64,000 nucleotides of DNA from Candidatus Saccharibacteria bacterium UBA6824 (GTDB lineage: Bacteria; Patescibacteriota; Saccharimonadia; Saccharimonadales; UBA10212), in contig DKEK01000005.1 of the NCBI GenBank assembly GCA_002452155.1, positions 70,675 through 134,674 on the forward strand, written 5' to 3'. The translations under genes and the position numbers were made by a program. Under the pieces are notes generated by a model. It ran no database searches and was not told the DNA's origin. It saw only the letters and a program-made list of their open reading frames with translations. Positions 1,420-52,846 of this stretch are shown here, one piece after another (within the stretch, counting starts at the first letter, position 1; each line of letters opens with the position of its first letter).

Positions 1420-1506
1420 TGGTGGCGCAGAAAGGACTTGAACCTTCACGGGCGTAAGCCCACTACGTCCTGAACGTAGCGTGTATACCAATTTCACCAC
1501 TGCGCC
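1420..1506 (-). tRNA. tRNA-Leu(CAG)
   Basis: Hand-folded cloverleaf. Acceptor stem GGCGCAG/CTGCGCC, encoded ACCA end, anticodon loop TTCAGGA (CAG), long variable arm, T-loop GGTTCAAGTCC. Confidence 0.9.
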
Positions 1507-1516
1507 ATCAAAATTA

Positions 1517-1752
1517 TTATACTAGTGATTTTAGATATTCTTTACCAGCACCGGACTTTAAATACTTCTCTCTTGTACGGGCAGCGAGACGACTCGCACA
1601 TGTTTCTTGATAGATAATCCTAAAAGGCGCATATGATCGAGTCGTTCTTTCATGCCCTTGATTATGTCGCTTGACACGTCTATCAAGGTCACTAGTCAAG
1701 CCACGTATATATAGTTTTTAGTTAGGCTTTTCAGTGCATAAACTTTGTACAT
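1517..1752 (-). pseudogene. GIY-YIG (COG2827/YhbQ-like URI-domain) nuclease gene with a 1-nt frameshift
   Basis: ATG at 1752 gives MYKVYALKSLTKNYIYVA followed by a stop. The -1 frame continues (G)LTSDLDRRVKRHNQGHERTTRSYAPF...REKYLKSGAGKEYLKSLV (track ORF 1517..1699). Restoring one G near 1700-1704 (GTGGC to GTGGGC) would give a canonical YIYVGLTSDL GIY-YIG core. It could instead be a sequencing error. Confidence 0.6.
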
Positions 1753-1775
1753 AATCTATGTCCAATCGTAGCGCG

Positions 1776-1817
1776 CCTGCCTGCCGCCTGCCTACCGGCA
1801 GGCAGGCGGCAGGCAGG
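1776..1817. repeat. 42-nt perfect hairpin, extended copy of the CCTGCC...GGCAGG palindrome family
   Basis: CCTGCCTGCCGCCTGCCT-ACCGGC-AGGCAGGCGGCAGGCAGG, with an 18-bp perfect stem. The core CCTGCCTACCGGCAGGCAGG is identical to the copy at 34952..34971. Confidence 0.9.
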
Positions 1818-1917
1818 TCTACCAATTCCGCCATTCGCCCGGAATAACTGTATTCAGTTTAACAGATAGAATATTAACTCATGCTATGATATTAGCGAAT
1901 GATCTAAGGGGTTATAT

Positions 1918-4277: not shown

Positions 4278-4354
4278 GCGGGTGTAGCTCAGTTGTTTAG
4301 AGCGCGTCCTTGCCAAGGACGAGGCCAGGGGTTAGAGTCCCCTCACCCGCACCA
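4278..4354 (+). tRNA. tRNA-Gly(GCC)
   Basis: Acceptor stem GCGGGTG/CACCCGC, anticodon stem CGTCC/GGACG with loop TTGCCAA, encoded CCA. A perfect 16-bp palindrome GTCCGCCTAGGCGGAC (4259..4274) precedes it. Confidence 0.9.
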
Positions 4355-4435
4355 TCCTACTTCGCGTAAAGCTTCGTAGGATTTGTGCGAAGTAGGATGC
4401 CCTCCATAGCCTTTTGGCGACGGAGGGCTTATTGT

Positions 4436-4681
4436 ATGACTATGTTTTACGTATATCTACTTAGGAGTCTTAATTATAACCAGACTTATGTCGGTTTCTC
4501 GAGAGACGTCCAAATAAGATTAAATCACCACAACGAAGGAAAAAGTCCGCATACAAGCAAATACAAACCCTGGAAACTGGTAACGTATTTTGGTTTTGAA
4601 TCTGAATCAAGAGCAAGGGAATTTGAGAAGTACCTAAAAACAGGATCGGGCATTGCTTTTGCCAGAAGACATCTTTTTTAG
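4436..4681 (+). CDS. GIY-YIG (COG2827/YhbQ-like URI-domain) nuclease
   Basis: Translation is M(T)MFYVYLLRSLNYNQTYVGFSRDVQIRLNHHNEGKSPHTSKYKPWKLVTYFGFESESRAREFEKYLKTGSGIAFARRHLF, a canonical small GIY-YIG layout. The track ORF starts at 4385; ATG 4436 or 4442 is the more likely start. Confidence 0.75.
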   Translation: MTMFYVYLLRSLNYNQTYVGFSRDVQIRLNHHNEGKSPHTSKYKPWKLVTYFGFESESRAREFEKYLKTGSGIAFARRHLF

Positions 4682-4718
4682 TTCCACCTGCCCGCCGAAG
4701 CTTTAGCGTAGGGTGGGT

Positions 4719-4740
4719 CACCCGCACCAAGCATAAGTAT
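4719..4740 (+). repeat. att-like junction: second copy of tRNA-Gly 3' end (TCACCCGCACCA) overlapping left copy of 17-bp direct repeat GCACCAAGCATAAGTAT
   Basis: TCACCCGCACCA at 4719..4730 repeats 4343..4354, the tRNA-Gly 3' end. GCACCAAGCATAAGTAT at 4724..4740 is repeated exactly at 6309..6325. Confidence 0.85.
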
Positions 4741-28006: not shown

Positions 28007-29080
28007 CTACTGGGGGCACTTTTTGACGCAATATTTACGAATATTATCCTCGTGTTCGGCTTGGGTGTGGGCAAAGTGCATCTTGCCGTCATCACCGGCT
28101 ACAAAATATAGATAGTCAGTGGTGGCAGGGTGAGCCACAGCGTTAAGTGCGTCTTTGGTCATATTGCTAATCGGCCCAGGTGGGAGGCCTGGATATAAGT
28201 GAGTGTTATATGGCGAATCAATAGCCAGGTTTGGCGGTTTCACGCCGGCGATAGCCGAAGCGTAAAAAGCCGTAACGTCAGAACCAAGCGCCATGTTGCC
28301 CGCTAGGCGTGACAAAAAGACTTGGGCAGCTGTTGGCTGGTAGGTCGGATCATCGGTCTCTTGGGCAACGATAGAAGCCAGCGTAATCCCTTGGTAGACG
28401 TTCAACGAGTGGGTCCCGAAACCATTGATTACATCTTGTGTTAGGTATTTTTGCATTTCGTCAAGCGATTCGCGGACGATGTCGATAGCCGGGGTATCGG
28501 CCTGCTTTTCAAAAGAGTCGGGATATAAGTAGCCTTCTAGCGAAGCGCCGGCAGGCAGGCTGGCCAGCACTGGATGGCCACGGTAGCTGGCCGGGTCAAA
28601 GGCCTGATCAATTTGACCGGCGCTGTAACCGGCGGCCGCAAAAGCTTGTTTAACTTCGTCGAGGCGCTTTTGCGGCAGAATAGTCAGCAGATTTTTAGCC
28701 ACGTCGCCGCCCACCATTTTTTTGACGATCTGTTCGACCCCCATAGAAGGACCCAGCGAATAAGTGCCGGCTTGCAACTTGTCGTGGAGTTCGTTGCTGC
28801 GGACATAGGTTTCAAAAACCCGGGCATTTCTGACCAGCCCGGCGCTTTTAAGTTTAATGGCGATTTGATGCAAGCTGGCCCCAGGTGTAACTGTAAAATA
28901 CTTACTGGTAGTCAAAGATGATACCGGTCTTAGGTTATGTACGTACCAAGTGCGAAGCGAAATAACACCGCCGCCCAACACTAAAATGATAACTGCCAAG
29001 GCAATGAGCAGCCGTTTGGATGGTCGAGGAGGCACCGGTTTATTCAGCCGCATCATAAAACTATACCAAAACCCGGTCAA
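28007..29080 (-). CDS. mltG: endolytic murein transglycosylase MltG (YceG-like)
   Basis: N-terminal TM followed by a YceG domain (ASLEGYLYPDSF, LASIVQETDD, SPYNTHLYPGLPPGPI). Confidence 0.9.
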   Translation of the reverse strand: MTGFWYSFMMRLNKPVPPRPSKRLLIALAVIILVLGGGVISLRTWYVHNLRPVSSLTTSKYFTVTPGASLHQIAIKLKSAGLVRNARVFETYVRSNELHDKLQAGTYSLGPSMGVEQIVKKMVGGDVAKNLLTILPQKRLDEVKQAFAAAGYSAGQIDQAFDPASYRGHPVLASLPAGASLEGYLYPDSFEKQADTPAIDIVRESLDEMQKYLTQDVINGFGTHSLNVYQGITLASIVAQETDDPTYQPTAAQVFLSRLAGNMALGSDVTAFYASAIAGVKPPNLAIDSPYNTHLYPGLPPGPISNMTKDALNAVAHPATTDYLYFVAGDDGKMHFAHTQAEHEDNIRKYCVKKCPQ

Positions 29081-29486: not shown

Positions 29487-31263
29487 GTATTTTGCCGGCA
29501 TTTTTAGGAGTTTTACTGACCCAAAACGGGCTGAGTTTGACATCGACTTCTTTGACACCCGGCAGATTGCCGAGCGCTGAGCGGATATCACCGGTTTTTT
29601 GGCCGGCGGCGGTTTTTTTGACAGCGGCGACATCAATGATCGGCACCGCGGTGGTGTCTTCCCTTAGCGCTAATGTGACTTTGGTCGGCGCCTCTTGAGA
29701 CGTGACACTGACCGTCAAGCCCTTAAGCACATCGTCGCTGCTGAGTTTTTGTTTTTTAGTGTCAATCTGCTTAGACATCTGGTCGGCAACCGCTTTTCTG
29801 AGGTCGTCATTTTTGAGCGTTAGTAGGGTATAGGTAATTTTAACGGTCACATTGGCATTGGTGGCCGGCTGACCGACCGGCACTGATGAAGTTAGCGCCG
29901 GGTCGCTCAGTTTAAGGGTTGAGGTAATGAGGTATAGTCCCTGGTCGCTAAGTTGTTTTTGCCAGTCTTTAGTGAATTTGTCGGTGTCGGCACTGGTAAT
30001 TTTTTGTTTAGCGCCATCGACGTCTGACTGGCTAAGGACAGTAGCTGTATTATCAGTACCGCCGCTGGCGCTGCCGCTGGCGGCCACATCTGGGCGGCCG
30101 GACACACTGAAGCTGGTTGAACCAACATTATATTTACTGCCACCAGTTTGGGCCTTGATGGCTGTCGGGCTGTTAGCAGAATAATTCACACAGCTACCAG
30201 CGGCGCCACTTATACTAAAGCTCGTCTTGGCTTGGGTTATATAAGTTAGACTGTTATGGCTAAGACCGGTGCCTGCCGGTACGTCATCTGGGGTGCTAAA
30301 GGGCGCCGAGCAGTCTTGAGCTGACATTGTTACCGAACCGCTGGCTTTATCGCCGTTATTCTGCTGGCCGGTGGCATTAACGGCAGTCGTGGCCGTTTGG
30401 TCCTTGGTTTGCAGGGCGGCCGGAATGATGCCTTTGGCCTCGTCAAGAGTTTTGGCGCCGCCGTCAGCTGTTAAATTAAAGCTGGCTGAAACCGGCAGAC
30501 TGATAGTTTTGAGGGTTATGGTGGCCTTGGGCAGCACAAATAGTGCCAAGATCAAAAAGACAATAAAGAGTACTAAACCGGCGATGCCCATGCCCAGGCT
30601 CAGGCGGAATTTGTCAAAGTTTGGTACTTTCAATCCCTTGTCTTTGAAGGCTTTAGCCTTGGCTTTGGCAGATGCCGTTACCCCCCCAACTTCCGCGGAG
30701 CCAGTCTCTACATCGTCCAAGGGGATGGTTTCGGGTTCTTCCACTTCAGCGGCCGCGGCCAGCTCGCCGATTGAATGGTTATAATCTATTTTGGCGTTAC
30801 CTTCGTCAATCTCTGCTTCTGGCTCCTCGGCTATTGCTTCGGCCGACGAAAGGGGTTTCCCCGGCCCTTCGTGGATGGGTACGGGTGAGGGTGGAATGTG
30901 CGGCTTGCTAGTCAAATTTTTAGCTATGTGCAGTCCGGCGGCACCGGCTAACGGTGACAGTGCCGAATCGCTGGTTATTAAAACGGCGCTTCTTCCGGCG
31001 CTGTCGGCAGCCCTCTTTAGCAGGCGCATATTGACAATGCTCTGCATGACGGTTGCCCGCTTAGGTAGTACCAGTGCCACCATCTTCTCTTTAGCGTTTT
31101 CAACTTTGTCGATTATCGATGTGATCTCATCGTCAAGGTCAATGTAAACTACGTCTTTGCCCGGTTTGGCCAGATTTTTATCGGCGCTCATCCCGTTAGA
31201 AGTCCGATTCGCGTCTGGCAAATCGGCAGTATTCCCCGAATTCTTACTTTTAACGGGACTCAT
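29443..31263 (-). CDS. bitopic membrane protein (cytoplasmic N-domain, one TM, large T/S/A-rich external domain), unknown function
   Basis: 606 aa. The start overlaps the ftsA-like stop by 4 nt. TM helix is MGIAGLVLFIVFLILALFVLP. Confidence 0.55.
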   Translation of the reverse strand: MSPVKSKNSGNTADLPDANRTSNGMSADKNLAKPGKDVVYIDLDDEITSIIDKVENAKEKMVALVLPKRATVMQSIVNMRLLKRAADSAGRSAVLITSDSALSPLAGAAGLHIAKNLTSKPHIPPSPVPIHEGPGKPLSSAEAIAEEPEAEIDEGNAKIDYNHSIGELAAAAEVEEPETIPLDDVETGSAEVGGVTASAKAKAKAFKDKGLKVPNFDKFRLSLGMGIAGLVLFIVFLILALFVLPKATITLKTISLPVSASFNLTADGGAKTLDEAKGIIPAALQTKDQTATTAVNATGQQNNGDKASGSVTMSAQDCSAPFSTPDDVPAGTGLSHNSLTYITQAKTSFSISGAAGSCVNYSANSPTAIKAQTGGSKYNVGSTSFSVSGRPDVAASGSASGGTDNTATVLSQSDVDGAKQKITSADTDKFTKDWQKQLSDQGLYLITSTLKLSDPALTSSVPVGQPATNANVTVKITYTLLTLKNDDLRKAVADQMSKQIDTKKQKLSSDDVLKGLTVSVTSQEAPTKVTLALREDTTAVPIIDVAAVKKTAAGQKTGDIRSALGNLPGVKEVDVKLSPFWVSKTPKNAGKIHVVQQQVSSGNTSP

Positions 31264-32585
31264 GTCCGTAGCACCTTATTAAGTTTAGCCTTTACGCTGG
31301 TGCGCTCGGGCGCGGCACCGGAATTTACCGTATCCATACCAACCCGGAGCAAGCCCATGGCGGTAATGTAAGTGTGGTCGTTAACGTCGCCCGTGGCATC
31401 AGTGATACCTATCACTTCTTCCGGCTGGATGTGCTGGACAATCGGCTTTTTGGTGAAGGGCAGATTTTTATGCCATTTGCCGTCTTCCAGCTGTTTCATT
31501 AACATTTCAAGTGATGAGCCGCCGCCGCATAGCAGCAGACGGTGTGGCAAATGGTCGAGCTTGCTAAATTCGGCCAGTGCCAGTTCAACGCCGCTAATCC
31601 AGACATTCAGGGTTTTTTCCAGAGCTTTTTCTATCTCCGGCCGCTGCTTGGCGGCTACCAACTGGCCGCCCAGGCCAACTTTTAGGGCTTCGGCCTTGGT
31701 AAAATCAATGTCCAGTTCGCGTTCGATGGCGTGGGTAAAGGCCCGGCCGCCAATGCCAAACATTTTAGTACCCTCAACGCCGCCCTCGTTGACCACGGCA
31801 ATATCGGTTGTACCACCGCCGACGTCCATCAATATGGCGCTCAGGCTGGTGTTGGGGTCGTCGCCAACTACCGAGCGGGCAACCGCAAAAGGTTCGGCGG
31901 CCACGGCCAGCAACTCTAGGTCGAGTTCGGTGGCCGTACGCTCCAGCGCCCCGATATGAATCATCGGCGCAAAAGCCGTGTACATTTCTACTAATATGTC
32001 CTTGCCCTGGAAGCCAACGGGGTTGGTGACTTTATAGCCGTCGATATCAATCCGCACCAAGGCACTATTGACTAAGCGCACCTGAACGTCCTTACCGCCT
32101 AGTTCCCACGCCAGCTGTTGACGGGCTTTTTGCTCGGCGCGCTCCTGCACCAGCTCGATAATCCGTTCCATCTCATCAATGTCCAGTTCTTTGGCTTGGT
32201 TATTGCGGGTAAATCTGACCGTACTGGTCGTGCCTTTCACCAGTTCGCCAGCAATGCCAATAACAGCGGTCCGGGCGGAAACTCCGGCTTGGGATTCAGC
32301 CGCTGCTAAGGCCTGGTCGCAGTTAGCCACCACAGCCGCGATGTCGGCAATCGCCCCAGCCTGCATATCAGCCAGTTCTTGGTGAGAGCGGCCAACACCT
32401 ATAATCTCGACTTCATTGCCGACCACCCTGCCGACTAGGGCTTTGATAAATTCGGTGCCAATATCCAGCGCTACCAGGTAGTTTTCTACCGGCTTGCCCT
32501 GCCTGCCGGCAGGCAGGCGCGCCTTCAGCTGTGAGACTTTTGGCACTTTTGCCCTGATATTTTTAACCCTGTCGGCAATAGCCAT
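31260..32585 (-). CDS. actin-like ATPase of the FtsA/PilM family (probable FtsA)
   Basis: LVALDIGTEFIKALVG..., IGIAGELV, LMDVGGGTTDIAVV and LLLCGGGS are ASKHA phosphate and adenosine motifs in FtsA-like order. No ftsZ is adjacent. Confidence 0.7.
   Translation of the reverse strand: MAIADRVKNIRAKVPKVSQLKARLPAGRQGKPVENYLVALDIGTEFIKALVGRVVGNEVEIIGVGRSHQELADMQAGAIADIAAVVANCDQALAAAESQAGVSARTAVIGIAGELVKGTTSTVRFTRNNQAKELDIDEMERIIELVQERAEQKARQQLAWELGGKDVQVRLVNSALVRIDIDGYKVTNPVGFQGKDILVEMYTAFAPMIHIGALERTATELDLELLAVAAEPFAVARSVVGDDPNTSLSAILMDVGGGTTDIAVVNEGGVEGTKMFGIGGRAFTHAIERELDIDFTKAEALKVGLGGQLVAAKQRPEIEKALEKTLNVWISGVELALAEFSKLDHLPHRLLLCGGGSSLEMLMKQLEDGKWHKNLPFTKKPIVQHIQPEEVIGITDATGDVNDHTYITAMGLLRVGMDTVNSGAAPERTSVKAKLNKVLRT
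32498..32517. repeat. 20-nt perfect palindrome CCTGCCTGCCGGCAGGCAGG inside the ftsA-like gene
   Basis: Exact palindrome, translated on the minus strand as LPAGRQ within the N-terminal tail ...KARLPAGRQGKPVENY. Confidence 0.9.
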
Positions 32586-32624
32586 AATCAGGTTGATTAT
32601 AGCACAGGAGGCCCCTGTAACTCC

Positions 32625-34631: not shown

Positions 34632-35696
34632 TTAGACTACTATTCCTCCTCCCAGGCATTGGTCGTCGGAGTAGAAGACGGCGGATTGGCCGGGAGTTAG
34701 TGCCCGTACGTCTTCCTCCAAGTCAGCACTCCAGAAATTACTTGAGCGGTTAAGTTTTTTTACTGTAATCAACTTGGCACGGTGACGAGTGCGGACAAAA
34801 AGTTCTTGGTCCTTTTGAGGTTGGCTATTTATCCAATGAATGCCGGTCAGTTTGATCTGATTATTCCATAACCTATTGTCTTGCAGGTCGGTTGTGACGT
34901 GAATCTCATTCTTCTTTATATCTTTACCGACCACGTAAAACGGCAAGCCACCCTGCCTACCGGCAGGCAGGCGCCCTCCAGTTCCTAGGCCGTGGCGCTG
35001 GCCGATAGTGTAGAAAAAAGCGCCATCGTGCTCCCCAAGCGTCAGGCCTTTTTGGTCGATAATCTTGCCCGGCGTTTCCTTGATGTACTGCTTTAGAAAA
35101 TCTTTGATACTAACTTTGCCTACAAAACAGATGCCCATGCTTTCTTTTTTATCAGCCGTTACTAGGCTGGCTTTTTTAGCCAGGGCTCTGACTTCGGGTT
35201 TTGTCAGTCCGCCAAGCGGGAATAGGGTCTTACTGAGCGCGGTGGAGTCTACGCGGTGCAAGAAGTAAGTCTGGTCTTTATTGCCATCTTTAGCCGTGAG
35301 TAGCTGGCCGTTTTTAACTTTTGCATAATGACCGGTGGCAATATAGTCTGCCCCGCCGCGCAGCGCTGTTTCTAAAAACAACTTAAATTTAATTTCCTGA
35401 TTGCACATAATATCGGGGTTGGGCGTGAAGCCCGTCTCATAGCCTTGCAACATATATTTGACCACTTTATCAAAGTAATCTTTCTCAAAATCATAGACCT
35501 TAAACTCAATCCCAAGCTGCACGGCTACACGTTTAGCGTCTTGGTAGTCCTCTTTCCAAGGGCATTTCATGCCGGGCAAGTCCTGGCTCCAATTCTTCAT
35601 ATAGACGCCAACGACATGAAAGCCCTGCTCCTTTAGAAGCAAAGCGCTAACGGAGGAATCAACGCCCCCGCTTAAGCCAACGTAAACTGTTTTCAT
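34632..35696 (-). CDS. mnmA: tRNA 2-thiouridine(34) synthase MnmA
   Basis: PP-loop VGLSGGVDSS, catalytic Cys regions and ...YTIGQRHGLG... The track starts at TTG 35714; ATG 35696 (MKTVYVGLSGG) is more likely. Confidence 0.93.
   Translation of the reverse strand: MKTVYVGLSGGVDSSVSALLLKEQGFHVVGVYMKNWSQDLPGMKCPWKEDYQDAKRVAVQLGIEFKVYDFEKDYFDKVVKYMLQGYETGFTPNPDIMCNQEIKFKLFLETALRGGADYIATGHYAKVKNGQLLTAKDGNKDQTYFLHRVDSTALSKTLFPLGGLTKPEVRALAKKASLVTADKKESMGICFVGKVSIKDFLKQYIKETPGKIIDQKGLTLGEHDGAFFYTIGQRHGLGTGGRLPAGRQGGLPFYVVGKDIKKNEIHVTTDLQDNRLWNNQIKLTGIHWINSQPQKDQELFVRTRHRAKLITVKKLNRSSNFWSADLEEDVRALTPGQSAVFYSDDQCLGGGIVV
34952..34971. repeat. palindrome-family copy CCTGCCTACCGGCAGGCAGG inside mnmA
   Basis: One mismatch from the perfect palindrome. 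Translated as LPAGRQ in GLGTGGRLPAGRQGGLPFYVV, a loop between conserved blocks. Confidence 0.9.
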
Positions 35697-39594: not shown

Positions 39595-39695
39595 CCCGTT
39601 AGAGCCCCACCGCCCGTTAGTCTGTTGAAGTTCGCTATTTGAGTGATTAGCATAGTTTTATCAATTGTATATAGGCCCTTGGGGCCTCTAACGGG
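39595..39695. repeat. 101-nt atpH-atpA spacer bounded by 14/15-nt inverted repeats
   Basis: CCCGTTAGAG-CCCC (39595..39608) against GGGGCCTCTAACGGG (39681..39695), with one indel. The interior is AT-rich. The left arm abuts the atpA start codon. Confidence 0.75.
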
Positions 39696-39697
39696 AC

Positions 39698-40261
39698 TCA
39701 TGGCTTACCTGCCTGGCCGGCAGGCAGGCCCGCCGTGGTTGTCGTACCCGGTGCCGGTGCGTCCAGGGCGGCGCCTTTTAAGAGTTCCAGGAGATAGGGC
39801 GTCTGTTTTTCCAGGCTGGCGCCTAAGCTCATATCAAAAATTTTATTAGGCGTCCTTAGCACGCAGCCGGCAGCAATCGCCGGCTGCAAGCCAATCTGCA
39901 CTAGTGTATAGCGGTGAACGTTTGTCCGCAGCCAGTTTAGTATGGTTTCCGTCACTTTCGGTGAAGGCTCGGCTGCAAAACTAACGTGCACCGTCGGCGC
40001 GTGGTCACGGATTTTGGTTAATTGATCGGCCATGTGTCGTCGATGGGGCTGTTGCTGCAGTTTATAGCCGTTAGCCAAGGCGGTTTGGTCGAGCAGGTTG
40101 GTAACTTTGGGGGCTTGAGTTTCCCGGACCGGCTGGCTAATTAAGGCTTCTTCAAGCGTCTCTAGTTCGCGCAGTAAGTGGTTAATGTCGGTTCTACCAC
40201 TTAGCTGAGCCGGCAGTACAAACGCGGCAGTCTCGACTGGCTTTTGGCTTTTAAGCGCCAC
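39698..40261 (-). CDS. atpH: F1 ATP synthase subunit delta (OSCP)
   Basis: It sits upstream of atpA. The C-terminal half is OSCP-like (VHVSFAAEPS...AIAAGCVLRTPNKIFDMSLGASLEKQ). The tail DAPAPGTTTTAGLPAGQAGKP contains the palindrome copy. Confidence 0.75.
   Translation of the reverse strand: MALKSQKPVETAAFVLPAQLSGRTDINHLLRELETLEEALISQPVRETQAPKVTNLLDQTALANGYKLQQQPHRRHMADQLTKIRDHAPTVHVSFAAEPSPKVTETILNWLRTNVHRYTLVQIGLQPAIAAGCVLRTPNKIFDMSLGASLEKQTPYLLELLKGAALDAPAPGTTTTAGLPAGQAGKP
39708..39728. repeat. palindrome-family copy CCTGCCTGGCCGGCAGGCAGG at the atpH 3' end
   Basis: 21-nt variant with one extra G. Translated as LPAGQAG, 3 codons before the stop. Confidence 0.85.
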
Positions 40262-52460: not shown

Positions 52461-52846
52461 TGGTGGAGCTGGTGGGAATTGCGCCCACGTCCGATGGTTT
52501 AATTAACTAGCGCTCTACAGGTTTAGGCCACTTAATATTGTTCGGAAACGAAGACCGCTAAATGGCCAAAAAGTCTCGTTCCCTAGTCCAAAATCTTAAC
52601 AAATCTCTAGGACACTGAGATTTGGGCAACCAGATGATATGACACACTGTAGACTCTATCTGATATCGAGCCGAGCATGGCTTACGAAATTAAGCGTAAG
52701 CTGGTGCGAAAACCGGCATGCTGAACATGCTAGCCATTCGCGAAACAAAAGATTTTACATCTATTGTGGTTGCACCGGATAACGTTCAGTGCAATCCGAC
52801 CTGCAAGCTAGTTGTTAAAGTCCACCGTCAAGCTGAAATCAGCCCC
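52461..52846 (-). ncRNA. ssrA: tmRNA (SsrA)
   Basis: The 5' end GGGGCTGATTTCAGC... pairs with the 3' end ...GGACGTGGGCGCAATTCCCACCAGCTCCACCA. That gives a tRNA-Ala-like acceptor with a G3:U pair, a T arm and CCA. An internal open frame ends ...MPVFAPAYA-TAA (stop at 52690..52692). Length 386 nt. Confidence 0.88.

Follow-up and report, generated by a model that had tools for sequence, protein, structure and literature searches.

A 20-nt palindrome in an FtsA-like gene of a Saccharimonadales bacterium: a probable solo copy of a small selfish DNA element associated with GIY-YIG/tRNA cassettes

The FtsA-like gene and its palindrome

The window, as we call the whole 64,000-nt stretch of DNA analysed here, comes from a Saccharimonadales (Patescibacteria) bacterium and carries, near its middle, an FtsA-like gene interrupted close to its 5' end by a short inverted repeat (Table 1). 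Direct reading of positions 32498-32517 gives CCTGCCTGCCGGCAGGCAGG, the perfect 20-nt palindrome centred on GCCGGC that the initial annotation had reported, and it is not extendable, C being present at both 32497 and 32518. As also noted there, the palindrome is read as LPAGRQ in the N-terminal tail that precedes the actin-fold motif LVALDIGT; the codons are 24-29, within the peptide KARLPAGRQGKPV. Both the open reading frame and the conservation of this tail bear out that reading.

Table 1. Coordinates of the genes, palindrome (PAL) copies and tRNA elements discussed in the text
Feature	Position	Strand	Description
FtsA-like gene	31260..32585	minus	441 aa; Pfam FtsA PF14450; actin-fold
Solo PAL copy in FtsA-like gene	32498..32517		codons 23-30; first base is the third of codon 23
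mnmA, host gene	34632..35696	minus	PAL copy is an in-frame 24-nt, 8-codon insertion
Solo PAL copy in mnmA	34952..34975		CCTGCCTACCGGCAGGCAGG; 1 mismatch, plus CGCC
ATP synthase delta-like gene (atpH)	39698..40261	minus	host of the 21-nt variant
Solo 21-nt variant	39708..39728		CCTGCCTGGCCGGCAGGCAGG; within the last codons of atpH
Intact tRNA-Leu(CAG)	1420..1506	minus	directly 3' of nuclease gene; ARAGORN, Rfam
GIY-YIG nuclease gene	1516..1752	minus	78 aa; stand-alone, UPF0213 / bacterial SLX1-like type
tRNA-Leu(CAG) remnant, continued	1753..1775	minus	cgcgctacg...; D-stem 3' strand and anticodon-arm start
Cassette copy, 42-nt palindrome	1776..1817		PAL plus one more 11-nt unit on each side
tRNA-Leu(CAG) remnant, nt 1 to ~21	1818..1840	minus	gggcgaatggcggaattggtaga; immediately 5' of palindrome
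Second GIY-YIG gene, same family	4436..4681	plus	mirror arrangement, after intact tRNA-Gly 4278-4354

The start codon of the FtsA-like gene lies at 32585-32583, and the N-terminus that it opens is kept in orthologues. Among the 120 Saccharimonadales orthologues listed, the tail MAIADRVKN...LPK...RGKPVENYLVALDIGT is conserved, so the start codon is right and the palindrome is coding. A TATAAT box is found 12 nt upstream of the ATG, and the upstream region is conserved in two syntenic relatives (L121 and L122). The possibility raised earlier that the true start lies downstream, making the palindrome a 5'-UTR element, is therefore rejected, since the N-terminus before the palindrome, the TATAAT box and the ATG are all conserved.

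None of the 120 listed orthologues contains LPAGRQ, and on this comparison the palindrome is a lineage-specific insertion; the tail is thus conserved without a palindrome in relatives, the outcome that the initial annotation had named as refuting its reading. Against L121, the nearest relative with synteny (92% identity of the protein), the gene in the window shows a net gain of 15 nt at the palindrome, the net inserted codons being 24-28 (LPAGR, 32502-32516). The ancestral site is not exactly reconstructable because the nearest relatives free of the palindrome are only ~78% identical at the nucleotide level, a value obtained over the start of ftsA and the end of atpH. The number of residues before the LDIGT motif varies from 27 to 63 across the 120 orthologues listed. 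The identical 441-aa protein with LPAGRQ is encoded by 12 independently assembled contigs, and the palindrome is therefore no assembly artefact; the LPAGRQ allele is real and fixed in that population. An artefactual or adaptor origin is further rejected by the presence of the same sequence in cultured isolates and by its fixed placement in the cassettes described below.

The initial annotation also proposed a stable mRNA hairpin, which folding supports: the local 30-mer has a predicted energy of -19.3 kcal/mol, and the hairpin persists in a 161-nt fold (z = -2.56). Such stability, together with an mRNA leader that is probably very short given a TATAAT box 12 nt before the ATG, would suit a regulatory hairpin evolved to delay or control the synthesis of the FtsA-like protein. 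However, the hairpin spans +66 to +85 of the mRNA, outside the initiation region, and in the fold it does not pair with the start codon; moreover, none of the 120 listed orthologues has it, and the same sequence recurs in mnmA, at the end of atpH, in tRNA remnants and in other phyla, all of which makes such a role very unlikely. The suggested effect on translation initiation is accordingly left unsupported by its position, by its absence from every listed orthologue and by the occurrence of the same DNA elsewhere. Because the palindrome is present in unrelated genes, tRNA remnants and other phyla, it is a DNA-level repeat rather than a feature evolved for the FtsA-like gene. The alternative offered in the same annotation, codons tolerated as a tail insertion, agrees with the 120 orthologous tails that lack LPAGRQ and with the net 15 nt fewer in L121. 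Most likely the FtsA copy is a tolerated passenger that adds five residues and is no design feature, although the mRNA hairpin or the five extra residues of the protein might have some functional effect.

An intrinsic terminator combines a GC-rich hairpin with a T-run. The palindromes at 32498 and 1776-1817 are flanked by CGCGCC and TCTACC with no T-run, and a terminator scan found no terminator-like site at either position.

Related copies and GIY-YIG/tRNA cassettes in the window

With up to three mismatches allowed, three matches to the palindrome (hereafter PAL) are found in the window, compared to 0.00 expected from 100 shuffles, which rules out chance or composition as its source. The family in the window has four real members, at 32498-32517, 34952-34971, 39708-39728 and 1776-1817. 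The kinship of the FtsA copy with the one at 34952, claimed from the first reading, is thereby upheld, the two differing by a single mismatch. A 12-mer at 28548 in yceG was discarded as a fifth copy: it consists of native SLPAG codons that are conserved in relatives, in a stretch of the same length there.

The mnmA copy adds GCGCCTGCCTGCCGGTAGGCAGGG (GRLPAGRQ) at a site that reads GGN GGN GGN in relatives in which it is empty. The atpH copy is a 22-nt insertion with which the TAA stop gives way to a TGA 5 nt downstream, the C-terminus becoming GLPAGQAGKP. None of the three genic copies is present in the syntenic relatives L121 and L122, and the 21 kb searched in each contain no PAL-like sequence at up to four mismatches. 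The mnmA copy and the window's own cassette copy have 22 nt in common, including the A8 variant, and both of these window genes, ftsA-like and mnmA, retain a CGC beside the palindrome like that of the tRNA context; the shared stretch and the retained CGC suggest that the genic copies in the window were copied locally from its cassette. A contig (P0255/L249) that could have passed for a strain variant with an empty atpH site was rejected as chimeric, its break falling exactly at PAL.

The 42-nt copy, which makes sense of the whole family, belongs to a cassette at positions 1840-1420, where the minus strand starts with ~21 nt from the beginning of a tRNA-Leu and continues with the palindrome, the next ~20 nt of that tRNA, the GIY-YIG gene and an intact tRNA-Leu(CAG), which is the functional copy. 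The 42-nt palindrome is placed in the D-loop of a truncated tRNA-Leu copy. The 5' part of this remnant agrees with the beginning of an intact tRNA-Leu(CAG) found in a relative (L241), and its second part lies between the palindrome and the nuclease start codon. As RNA, the 42-nt copy is predicted to form a hairpin of -44.1 kcal/mol (z = -5.9). Rfam 15 at gathering score returns only tRNAs and the tmRNA in the window, the best sub-threshold match on the cassette being P35 with 33 bits against a threshold of 70, and a known RNA family was therefore rejected as the identity of the palindrome.

The 78-aa protein is assigned to the GIY-YIG family by jackhmmer and by Pfam (PF01541, E = 1.4e-14), and among solved structures the closest are those of the UPF0213 proteins 1zg2 and 1ywl, with SLX1 next. 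An older survey had already recorded stand-alone Slx1-like domains in bacteria, among them a recent insertion into an HsdR, as well as one fused to the D-loop methylase TrmH (PMC1564403). At the orthologous locus the cassette is missing from two relatives: L242 has a plain tRNA-Leu(CAG), and in L241 the locus has a tRNA of the type left as a remnant in the window, together with a decayed duplicate of its 3' end. The second GIY-YIG gene in the window is followed by a 12-nt duplicate of the tRNA-Gly 3' end (4718-4729), and this second cassette has other GC-rich hairpins and no PAL.

Cassettes and solo copies in other genomes

Independently of the palindrome, we selected 80 metagenome loci by alignment of the GIY-YIG protein alone, 76 of which have enough upstream DNA. 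A palindrome with up to three mismatches, mostly exact, lies just 5' of the GIY-YIG gene in 44 of the 76, and in those 44 loci the order is invariably a tRNA 5' remnant that contains it, the gene and an intact tRNA. At up to two mismatches, the distance from the end of PAL to the first position of the protein match is 11-79 nt (median 26) in 44 copies. Most other copies are found shortly 3' of the gene within a redundant tRNA copy, and many of the loci that remain have the mirror order of intact tRNA, gene and 3' remnant or full second tRNA, with the palindrome in the T-loop, anticodon arm or D-loop of the redundant tRNA copy. The cassette order also appears in loci recovered through the palindrome alone, in other phyla and a viral contig (L037, L106, L118, L154, L085 and L099), and one cassette lies inside an hsdS-like gene (L060). 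At 76-88 aa, the proteins comprise nothing beyond the catalytic domain and have no joined DNA-binding domain.

In 41 of 68 copies the insertion is a precise 20 nt, as the joined 12+12-nt flanks run uninterrupted in the intact tRNA, with neither duplication nor loss; 38 of these 41 insertions follow an A, and the insertions in tRNA copies are strand-specific. PAL remains identical while the cassette proteins share only 45-70% identity. The variants in L165 and L191 carry paired compensatory changes that retain the hairpin, and the recurrent A8/T13 variant corresponds to a loop position in their hairpin register. Units also vary in number, giving palindromes of 16, 19, 21 and 42 nt. A comparison of palindrome type with nuclease clade showed no specificity pairing, PAL being spread over the entire protein tree, and co-variation of the two was rejected.

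Across genomes, the exact 20-mer is found in at least 120 species-representative genomes of many phyla, among them Patescibacteria, Bacteroidota (including cultured strains), Omnitrophota, Planctomycetota, Proteobacteria and Nitrospirota-like bacteria, as well as in 35 viral contigs, one of which has six PAL copies and no GIY-YIG gene in the retrieved DNA. Cultured carriers include Winogradskyella echinorum KCTC 22026, Flagellimonas yonaguniensis and Longitalea luteola. Of the exact genomic copies listed, ~94% are not beside a GIY-YIG gene. Solo copies occupy intergenic sequence, the tips of hairpins already present and the interior of genes, and their flanks are unrelated except for a preference for A before and T after. 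In 9.1% of cases PAL occupies the tip of an inverted repeat (6 bp or longer) that was already there, compared to 1.5-2.1% in controls. Direct repeats of 7-8 nt flank the junction at 6 of 165 solo sites (3.6%, against 0.1% in controls), a frequency at which target-site duplication is rejected as a general feature and which hints at a second insertion mode at some junctions.

About one third of PAL copies lie inside long open reading frames. In low-GC genomes, counting long credible frames and including the two window genes, the LPAGRQ frame outnumbers CLPAGR and PACRQA, with 11 of 14. Further in-frame copies occur in ftsK, gatB, an rfbB-like gene and rpsF. In the genic copies examined in detail the net length differs from 20 nt and the frame is kept (+15 and +24 nt in the window). 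The FtsA and mnmA copies, imprecise in this way, also lack the signature of insertion after A, and they may have arisen by a different route, e.g. templated break repair.

Clustering of the open reading frames within 1.5 kb of 167 PAL sites revealed no recurrent transposase near PAL, and other partner genes (a transposase or a RAYT) were rejected, none recurring within that distance. ORFs annotated as 'Four-helix-bundle / 23S IVS protein' were seen in five loci, the one in L108 lying ~1.3 kb from PAL.

These distributions bear on what maintains the sequence. Its perfect 2-fold symmetry and GCCGGC core, its several copies per genome and its strong conservation could be expected of a functional binding site for a cellular protein, such as the operator of a dimeric regulator or a restriction-modification or partition site, with functional genic copies. 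We consider this extremely unlikely: the copies are recent insertions in unrelated genes at positions not common to relatives, PAL occurs in phyla with no shared regulator, the variants keep the pairing and not the sequence, and no gene but GIY-YIG recurs beside it.

PAL could alternatively be a passive by-product of repair and replication, existing copies templating strand switching or gene conversion at breaks and hairpins, while cassettes would keep PAL only since an interrupted direct repeat guards against deletion. The imprecise genic copies (+15, +22 and +24 nt), the few flanking bases (CGC) carried along from the tRNA context, the unit-number variants of 16, 19, 21 and 42 nt, the location of most copies far from any GIY-YIG gene and two decayed cassettes in which the gene is lost and PAL kept (L015 and L030) are consistent with such an origin. 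It fits poorly with insertions in tRNAs that are exact, 20 nt long, after A and strand-specific, with the presence of PAL in the redundant tRNA copy of most cassettes chosen by protein, and with a sequence identical across phyla. We therefore favour a dedicated mechanism on account of the exact tRNA insertions, the placement in the redundant copy and the identity across phyla, and regard a purely passive origin as rather unlikely.

Proposed origin of the palindrome and comparison with known systems

Taken together, these observations lead us to propose, with a probability of about 0.68, that the palindrome in the FtsA-like gene is one solo copy of PAL, a very small selfish DNA element and the conserved cis partner of a horizontally spreading nuclease/tRNA cassette. 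Judged from sequence, PAL is an inserted, repeated DNA element tied physically and evolutionarily to SLX1-like GIY-YIG/tRNA cassettes. How it moves we infer from the same kind of data, and the link between nuclease and PAL is one of association. In the part of the literature that our search covered, neither the palindrome nor its peptides (LPAGRQ and others) were found, nor any account of mobility of UPF0213 proteins, nor a link between GIY-YIG genes, tRNA fragments and palindromes in bacteria; PAL is apparently undescribed so far.

Under the preferred reading, a GIY-YIG nuclease gene would insert at a tRNA gene with a partial or full tRNA duplicate beside it, and PAL would sit in a loop of the redundant tRNA copy. 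There it may also protect the element, by breaking up a direct repeat that would otherwise delete it. From a cassette such as that at 1420-1840, PAL would then be copied to other sites. The nuclease, a relative of the structure-specific SLX1, may recognise or cut the extruded hairpin and so drive the copying; alternatively, its substrate may be the loops of single-stranded tRNA-gene DNA, where it would promote copying of PAL and cassette alike. Within genes only net lengths that keep the frame would survive, mostly in the Cys-free frame. The insertion in the FtsA-like gene would have hit an N-terminal tail that is basic and varies in length, where its five extra residues make a near-neutral passenger and its mRNA hairpin would form without an evolved regulatory role.

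A bolder version of this proposal, which we put forward tentatively and consider doubtful as a whole, is that PAL would be smaller than any mobile element seen so far, a 20-nt hairpin without ends apart from itself, inserted precisely, without duplication and 3' of A, in single-stranded loops of tRNA genes or at hairpin tips by an SLX1-like (UPF0213) nuclease. The two together might then form a new class of selfish nuclease-plus-palindrome systems that spreads across phyla and viruses alike, captures tRNA genes through the replacement copy that it brings and seeds in-frame LPAGRQ into essential genes.

What this means for the FtsA-like protein is modest: a five-residue passenger. More broadly, UPF0213 / bacterial SLX1-like GIY-YIG proteins are widespread and have solved structures and no known function, and the cassettes offer them a candidate role, with the defined 20-nt hairpin and tRNA-gene loops as candidate substrates. 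A putatively selfish element of 20 nt, identical across phyla and viruses, that enters essential genes in frame (ftsK, gatB, rpsF, mnmA and the FtsA-like gene) bears on the tolerance of junk DNA in small genomes, e.g. those of Patescibacteria. It would also explain recurrent LPAGRQ, PACRQAG and CLPAGR peptides and broken tRNA calls in annotations, and it is a sequence at which metagenome assemblies can misjoin, as in L249.

Among known systems, REP/REPIN-RAYT resembles PAL in having short, GC-rich, dispersed palindromes beside the gene of a nuclease thought to move them, in forming hairpins, in leaving no target duplication and in occurring in solo and multi-unit forms. However, RAYT is an HUH/Y1 transposase, whereas the only recurrent partner of PAL is a minimal GIY-YIG nuclease (PF01541); REPs are imperfect palindromes, extragenic and species-specific, with a GTAG head, while PAL is identical across phyla, lies in tRNA remnants and coding sequences and has no GTAG head. 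IS200/IS605 elements likewise lack target duplication, insert 3' of a short signal (A in the case of PAL), form hairpins and act strand-specifically, but they encode the HUH enzyme TnpA and extend over hundreds of bp, whereas PAL has no ends other than itself. GIY-YIG enzymes, unlike the HUH enzymes of IS200/IS605, form no covalent DNA intermediate. MITEs have terminal inverted repeats with a target duplication of fixed length, in contrast to the 41 of 68 PAL copies inserted precisely and without duplication.

Rickettsia palindromic elements (RPEs), reportedly described by Ogata and colleagues in 2000, are said to measure 100-150 bp, to be confined to Rickettsia and to lie in frame within genes. 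Like PAL they add translated peptide segments to tolerant loops, and this in-frame behaviour is all that the two share: RPEs are 100-150 bp long with no known partner gene, whereas PAL has 20 nt (42 when doubled), many phyla and a nuclease cassette. The GC clusters and double-hairpin elements of fungal mitochondria, for which related palindromes have reportedly been noted, are 30-50 bp long, often with AG or TAG target duplications. They are similar to PAL as GC-rich palindromes of AT-richer genomes that enter genes and RNA genes and that coexist with GIY-YIG or LAGLIDADG homing endonuclease genes; we know of no fixed physical link between them and a nuclease gene. Unlike PAL, they are organellar, longer and often target-duplicating.

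Phage T4 SegB is an example of a free-standing GIY-YIG homing endonuclease at tRNA genes (PMC2988022, PMC13096335). The cassette is like it in that a GIY-YIG gene lies among or next to tRNA genes and the resident tRNA region is replaced. What sets it apart from SegB is the partial duplication of the tRNA and the fixed palindrome by which the dead copy is marked. Seg proteins are longer than 200 aa and include DNA-binding domains, whereas the cassette protein is a catalytic domain of only ~80 aa. Compared to free-standing homing endonuclease cassettes in general, a GIY-YIG domain beside a host gene, present or absent between relatives, is likewise found here, but the joined sequence-specific DNA-binding domain is lacking. 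The PAL system thus departs from defining features of REP/RAYT, RPEs, mitochondrial GC clusters and T4 SegB. Overall, it would work like REP/RAYT, it invades genes like RPEs and GC clusters, and it has the tRNA habitat of T4 SegB.

Leader and N-terminal tail of the FtsA-like gene

In the sequence just upstream of the FtsA-like gene (window 32586-32610), TGTGCTATAAT ends 12 nt before the ATG, and no obvious Shine-Dalgarno sequence is present. The same arrangement is kept in L121 and L122, the syntenic relatives that lack the 20-nt palindrome (PAL). It suggests that the FtsA-like mRNA is leaderless or carries a very short leader. At the point of the N-terminal tail where PAL lies, six other orthologues (P0003, P0005, P0026, P0028, P0038 and P0047) contain a different insertion of eight residues (L122:10070-10110), which is itself flanked by a repeat (RGKP-LHFG-RGKP). 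This position in the tail is an indel hot spot.

Other palindrome sites: the atpH region and tandem repeats

The atpH-atpA spacer contains a small GC-rich palindrome, aggcccttggggcct (window 39673-39687), and the stretch containing it is missing from L121. This is another hairpin insertion, with a sequence unlike that of PAL. At the atpH copy of PAL, a contig from a sister sample (L249, JGI Ga0120179_1003932) is identical to the window up to the palindrome, beyond which its sequence is GC-rich and unrelated (L249:3540 onward); it is probably a chimeric assembly joined at the palindrome. The 197-aa variant of the delta subunit (P0252 / P0255) is false, being a product of this join.

In intergenic DNA at nine loci (L002, L005, L023, L045, L050, L058, L082, L101 and L115) of Bacteroidota, Planctomycetota and certain CPR genomes, short direct repeats of 7-8 nt stand in tandem, and PAL is placed precisely at a junction between their units. 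These repeats are either target duplications that were amplified later or the outcome of local slippage promoted by the hairpin.

tRNA cassettes, GIY-YIG genes and other palindromes

In relatives, the tRNA-Leu(CAG) gene lies between the PBP5-like and FAD-oxidase genes in the opposite orientation (L241:3651-3925 versus window 1420-1840). Two sequence types of this tRNA occur, the remnant in the window being of the L241 type and the intact copy of the L242 type. The locus was therefore both inverted and supplied with a replacement tRNA. A sub-threshold Rfam match to P35, a Pseudomonas sRNA, spans the tRNA remnant and palindrome (window 1778-1832, minus strand). It reaches 33 bits, where the gathering score is 70, with E = 0.0027, and probably reflects nothing beyond a GC hairpin. 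Elsewhere, the window carries an ordinary tmRNA gene (52461-52846, minus strand, 104 bits).

A second GIY-YIG cassette, in mirror order, occupies window 4278-4729 and lacks PAL. Its ccacctgcccgccgaagc is similar to a second palindrome type (CCGCCTGCC-GAAG-GC..), which is found upstream of PAL in L158 and L227.

Components of the tRNA-Gly GIY-YIG cassette
Feature	Window position	Remark
Intact tRNA-Gly(GCC)	4278-4354	
Two GC-rich hairpins	4353-4399 and 4400-4428	
GIY-YIG gene	4436-4681	81 aa; followed by another hairpin-like stretch
12-nt duplicate of tRNA-Gly 3' end	4718-4729	tcacccgcacca

A third GIY-YIG gene lies directly 3' of ligA, outside the window and about 4.4 kb before its first base (L238:3479-3736). 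It belongs to a different subfamily (motif REQNLKYYGQG), has no PAL with it and, added to the two in the window, brings the small GIY-YIG genes to at least three in about 10 kb of this genome.

PAL and a GIY-YIG domain also occur inside an hsdS-like gene (L060:3780-4260), where the palindrome's 20 nt shift the frame so as to place the nuclease domain between the host's N- and C-terminal parts in a single ORF of 714 codons. In L039:860-900, the D-loop site that PAL takes in tRNA remnants holds another GC-rich palindrome, cccgcccgtaccgaacgggtacgttcgggcgggg, with a decayed GIY-YIG gene downstream; other palindrome families may therefore fill the role of PAL in such cassettes.
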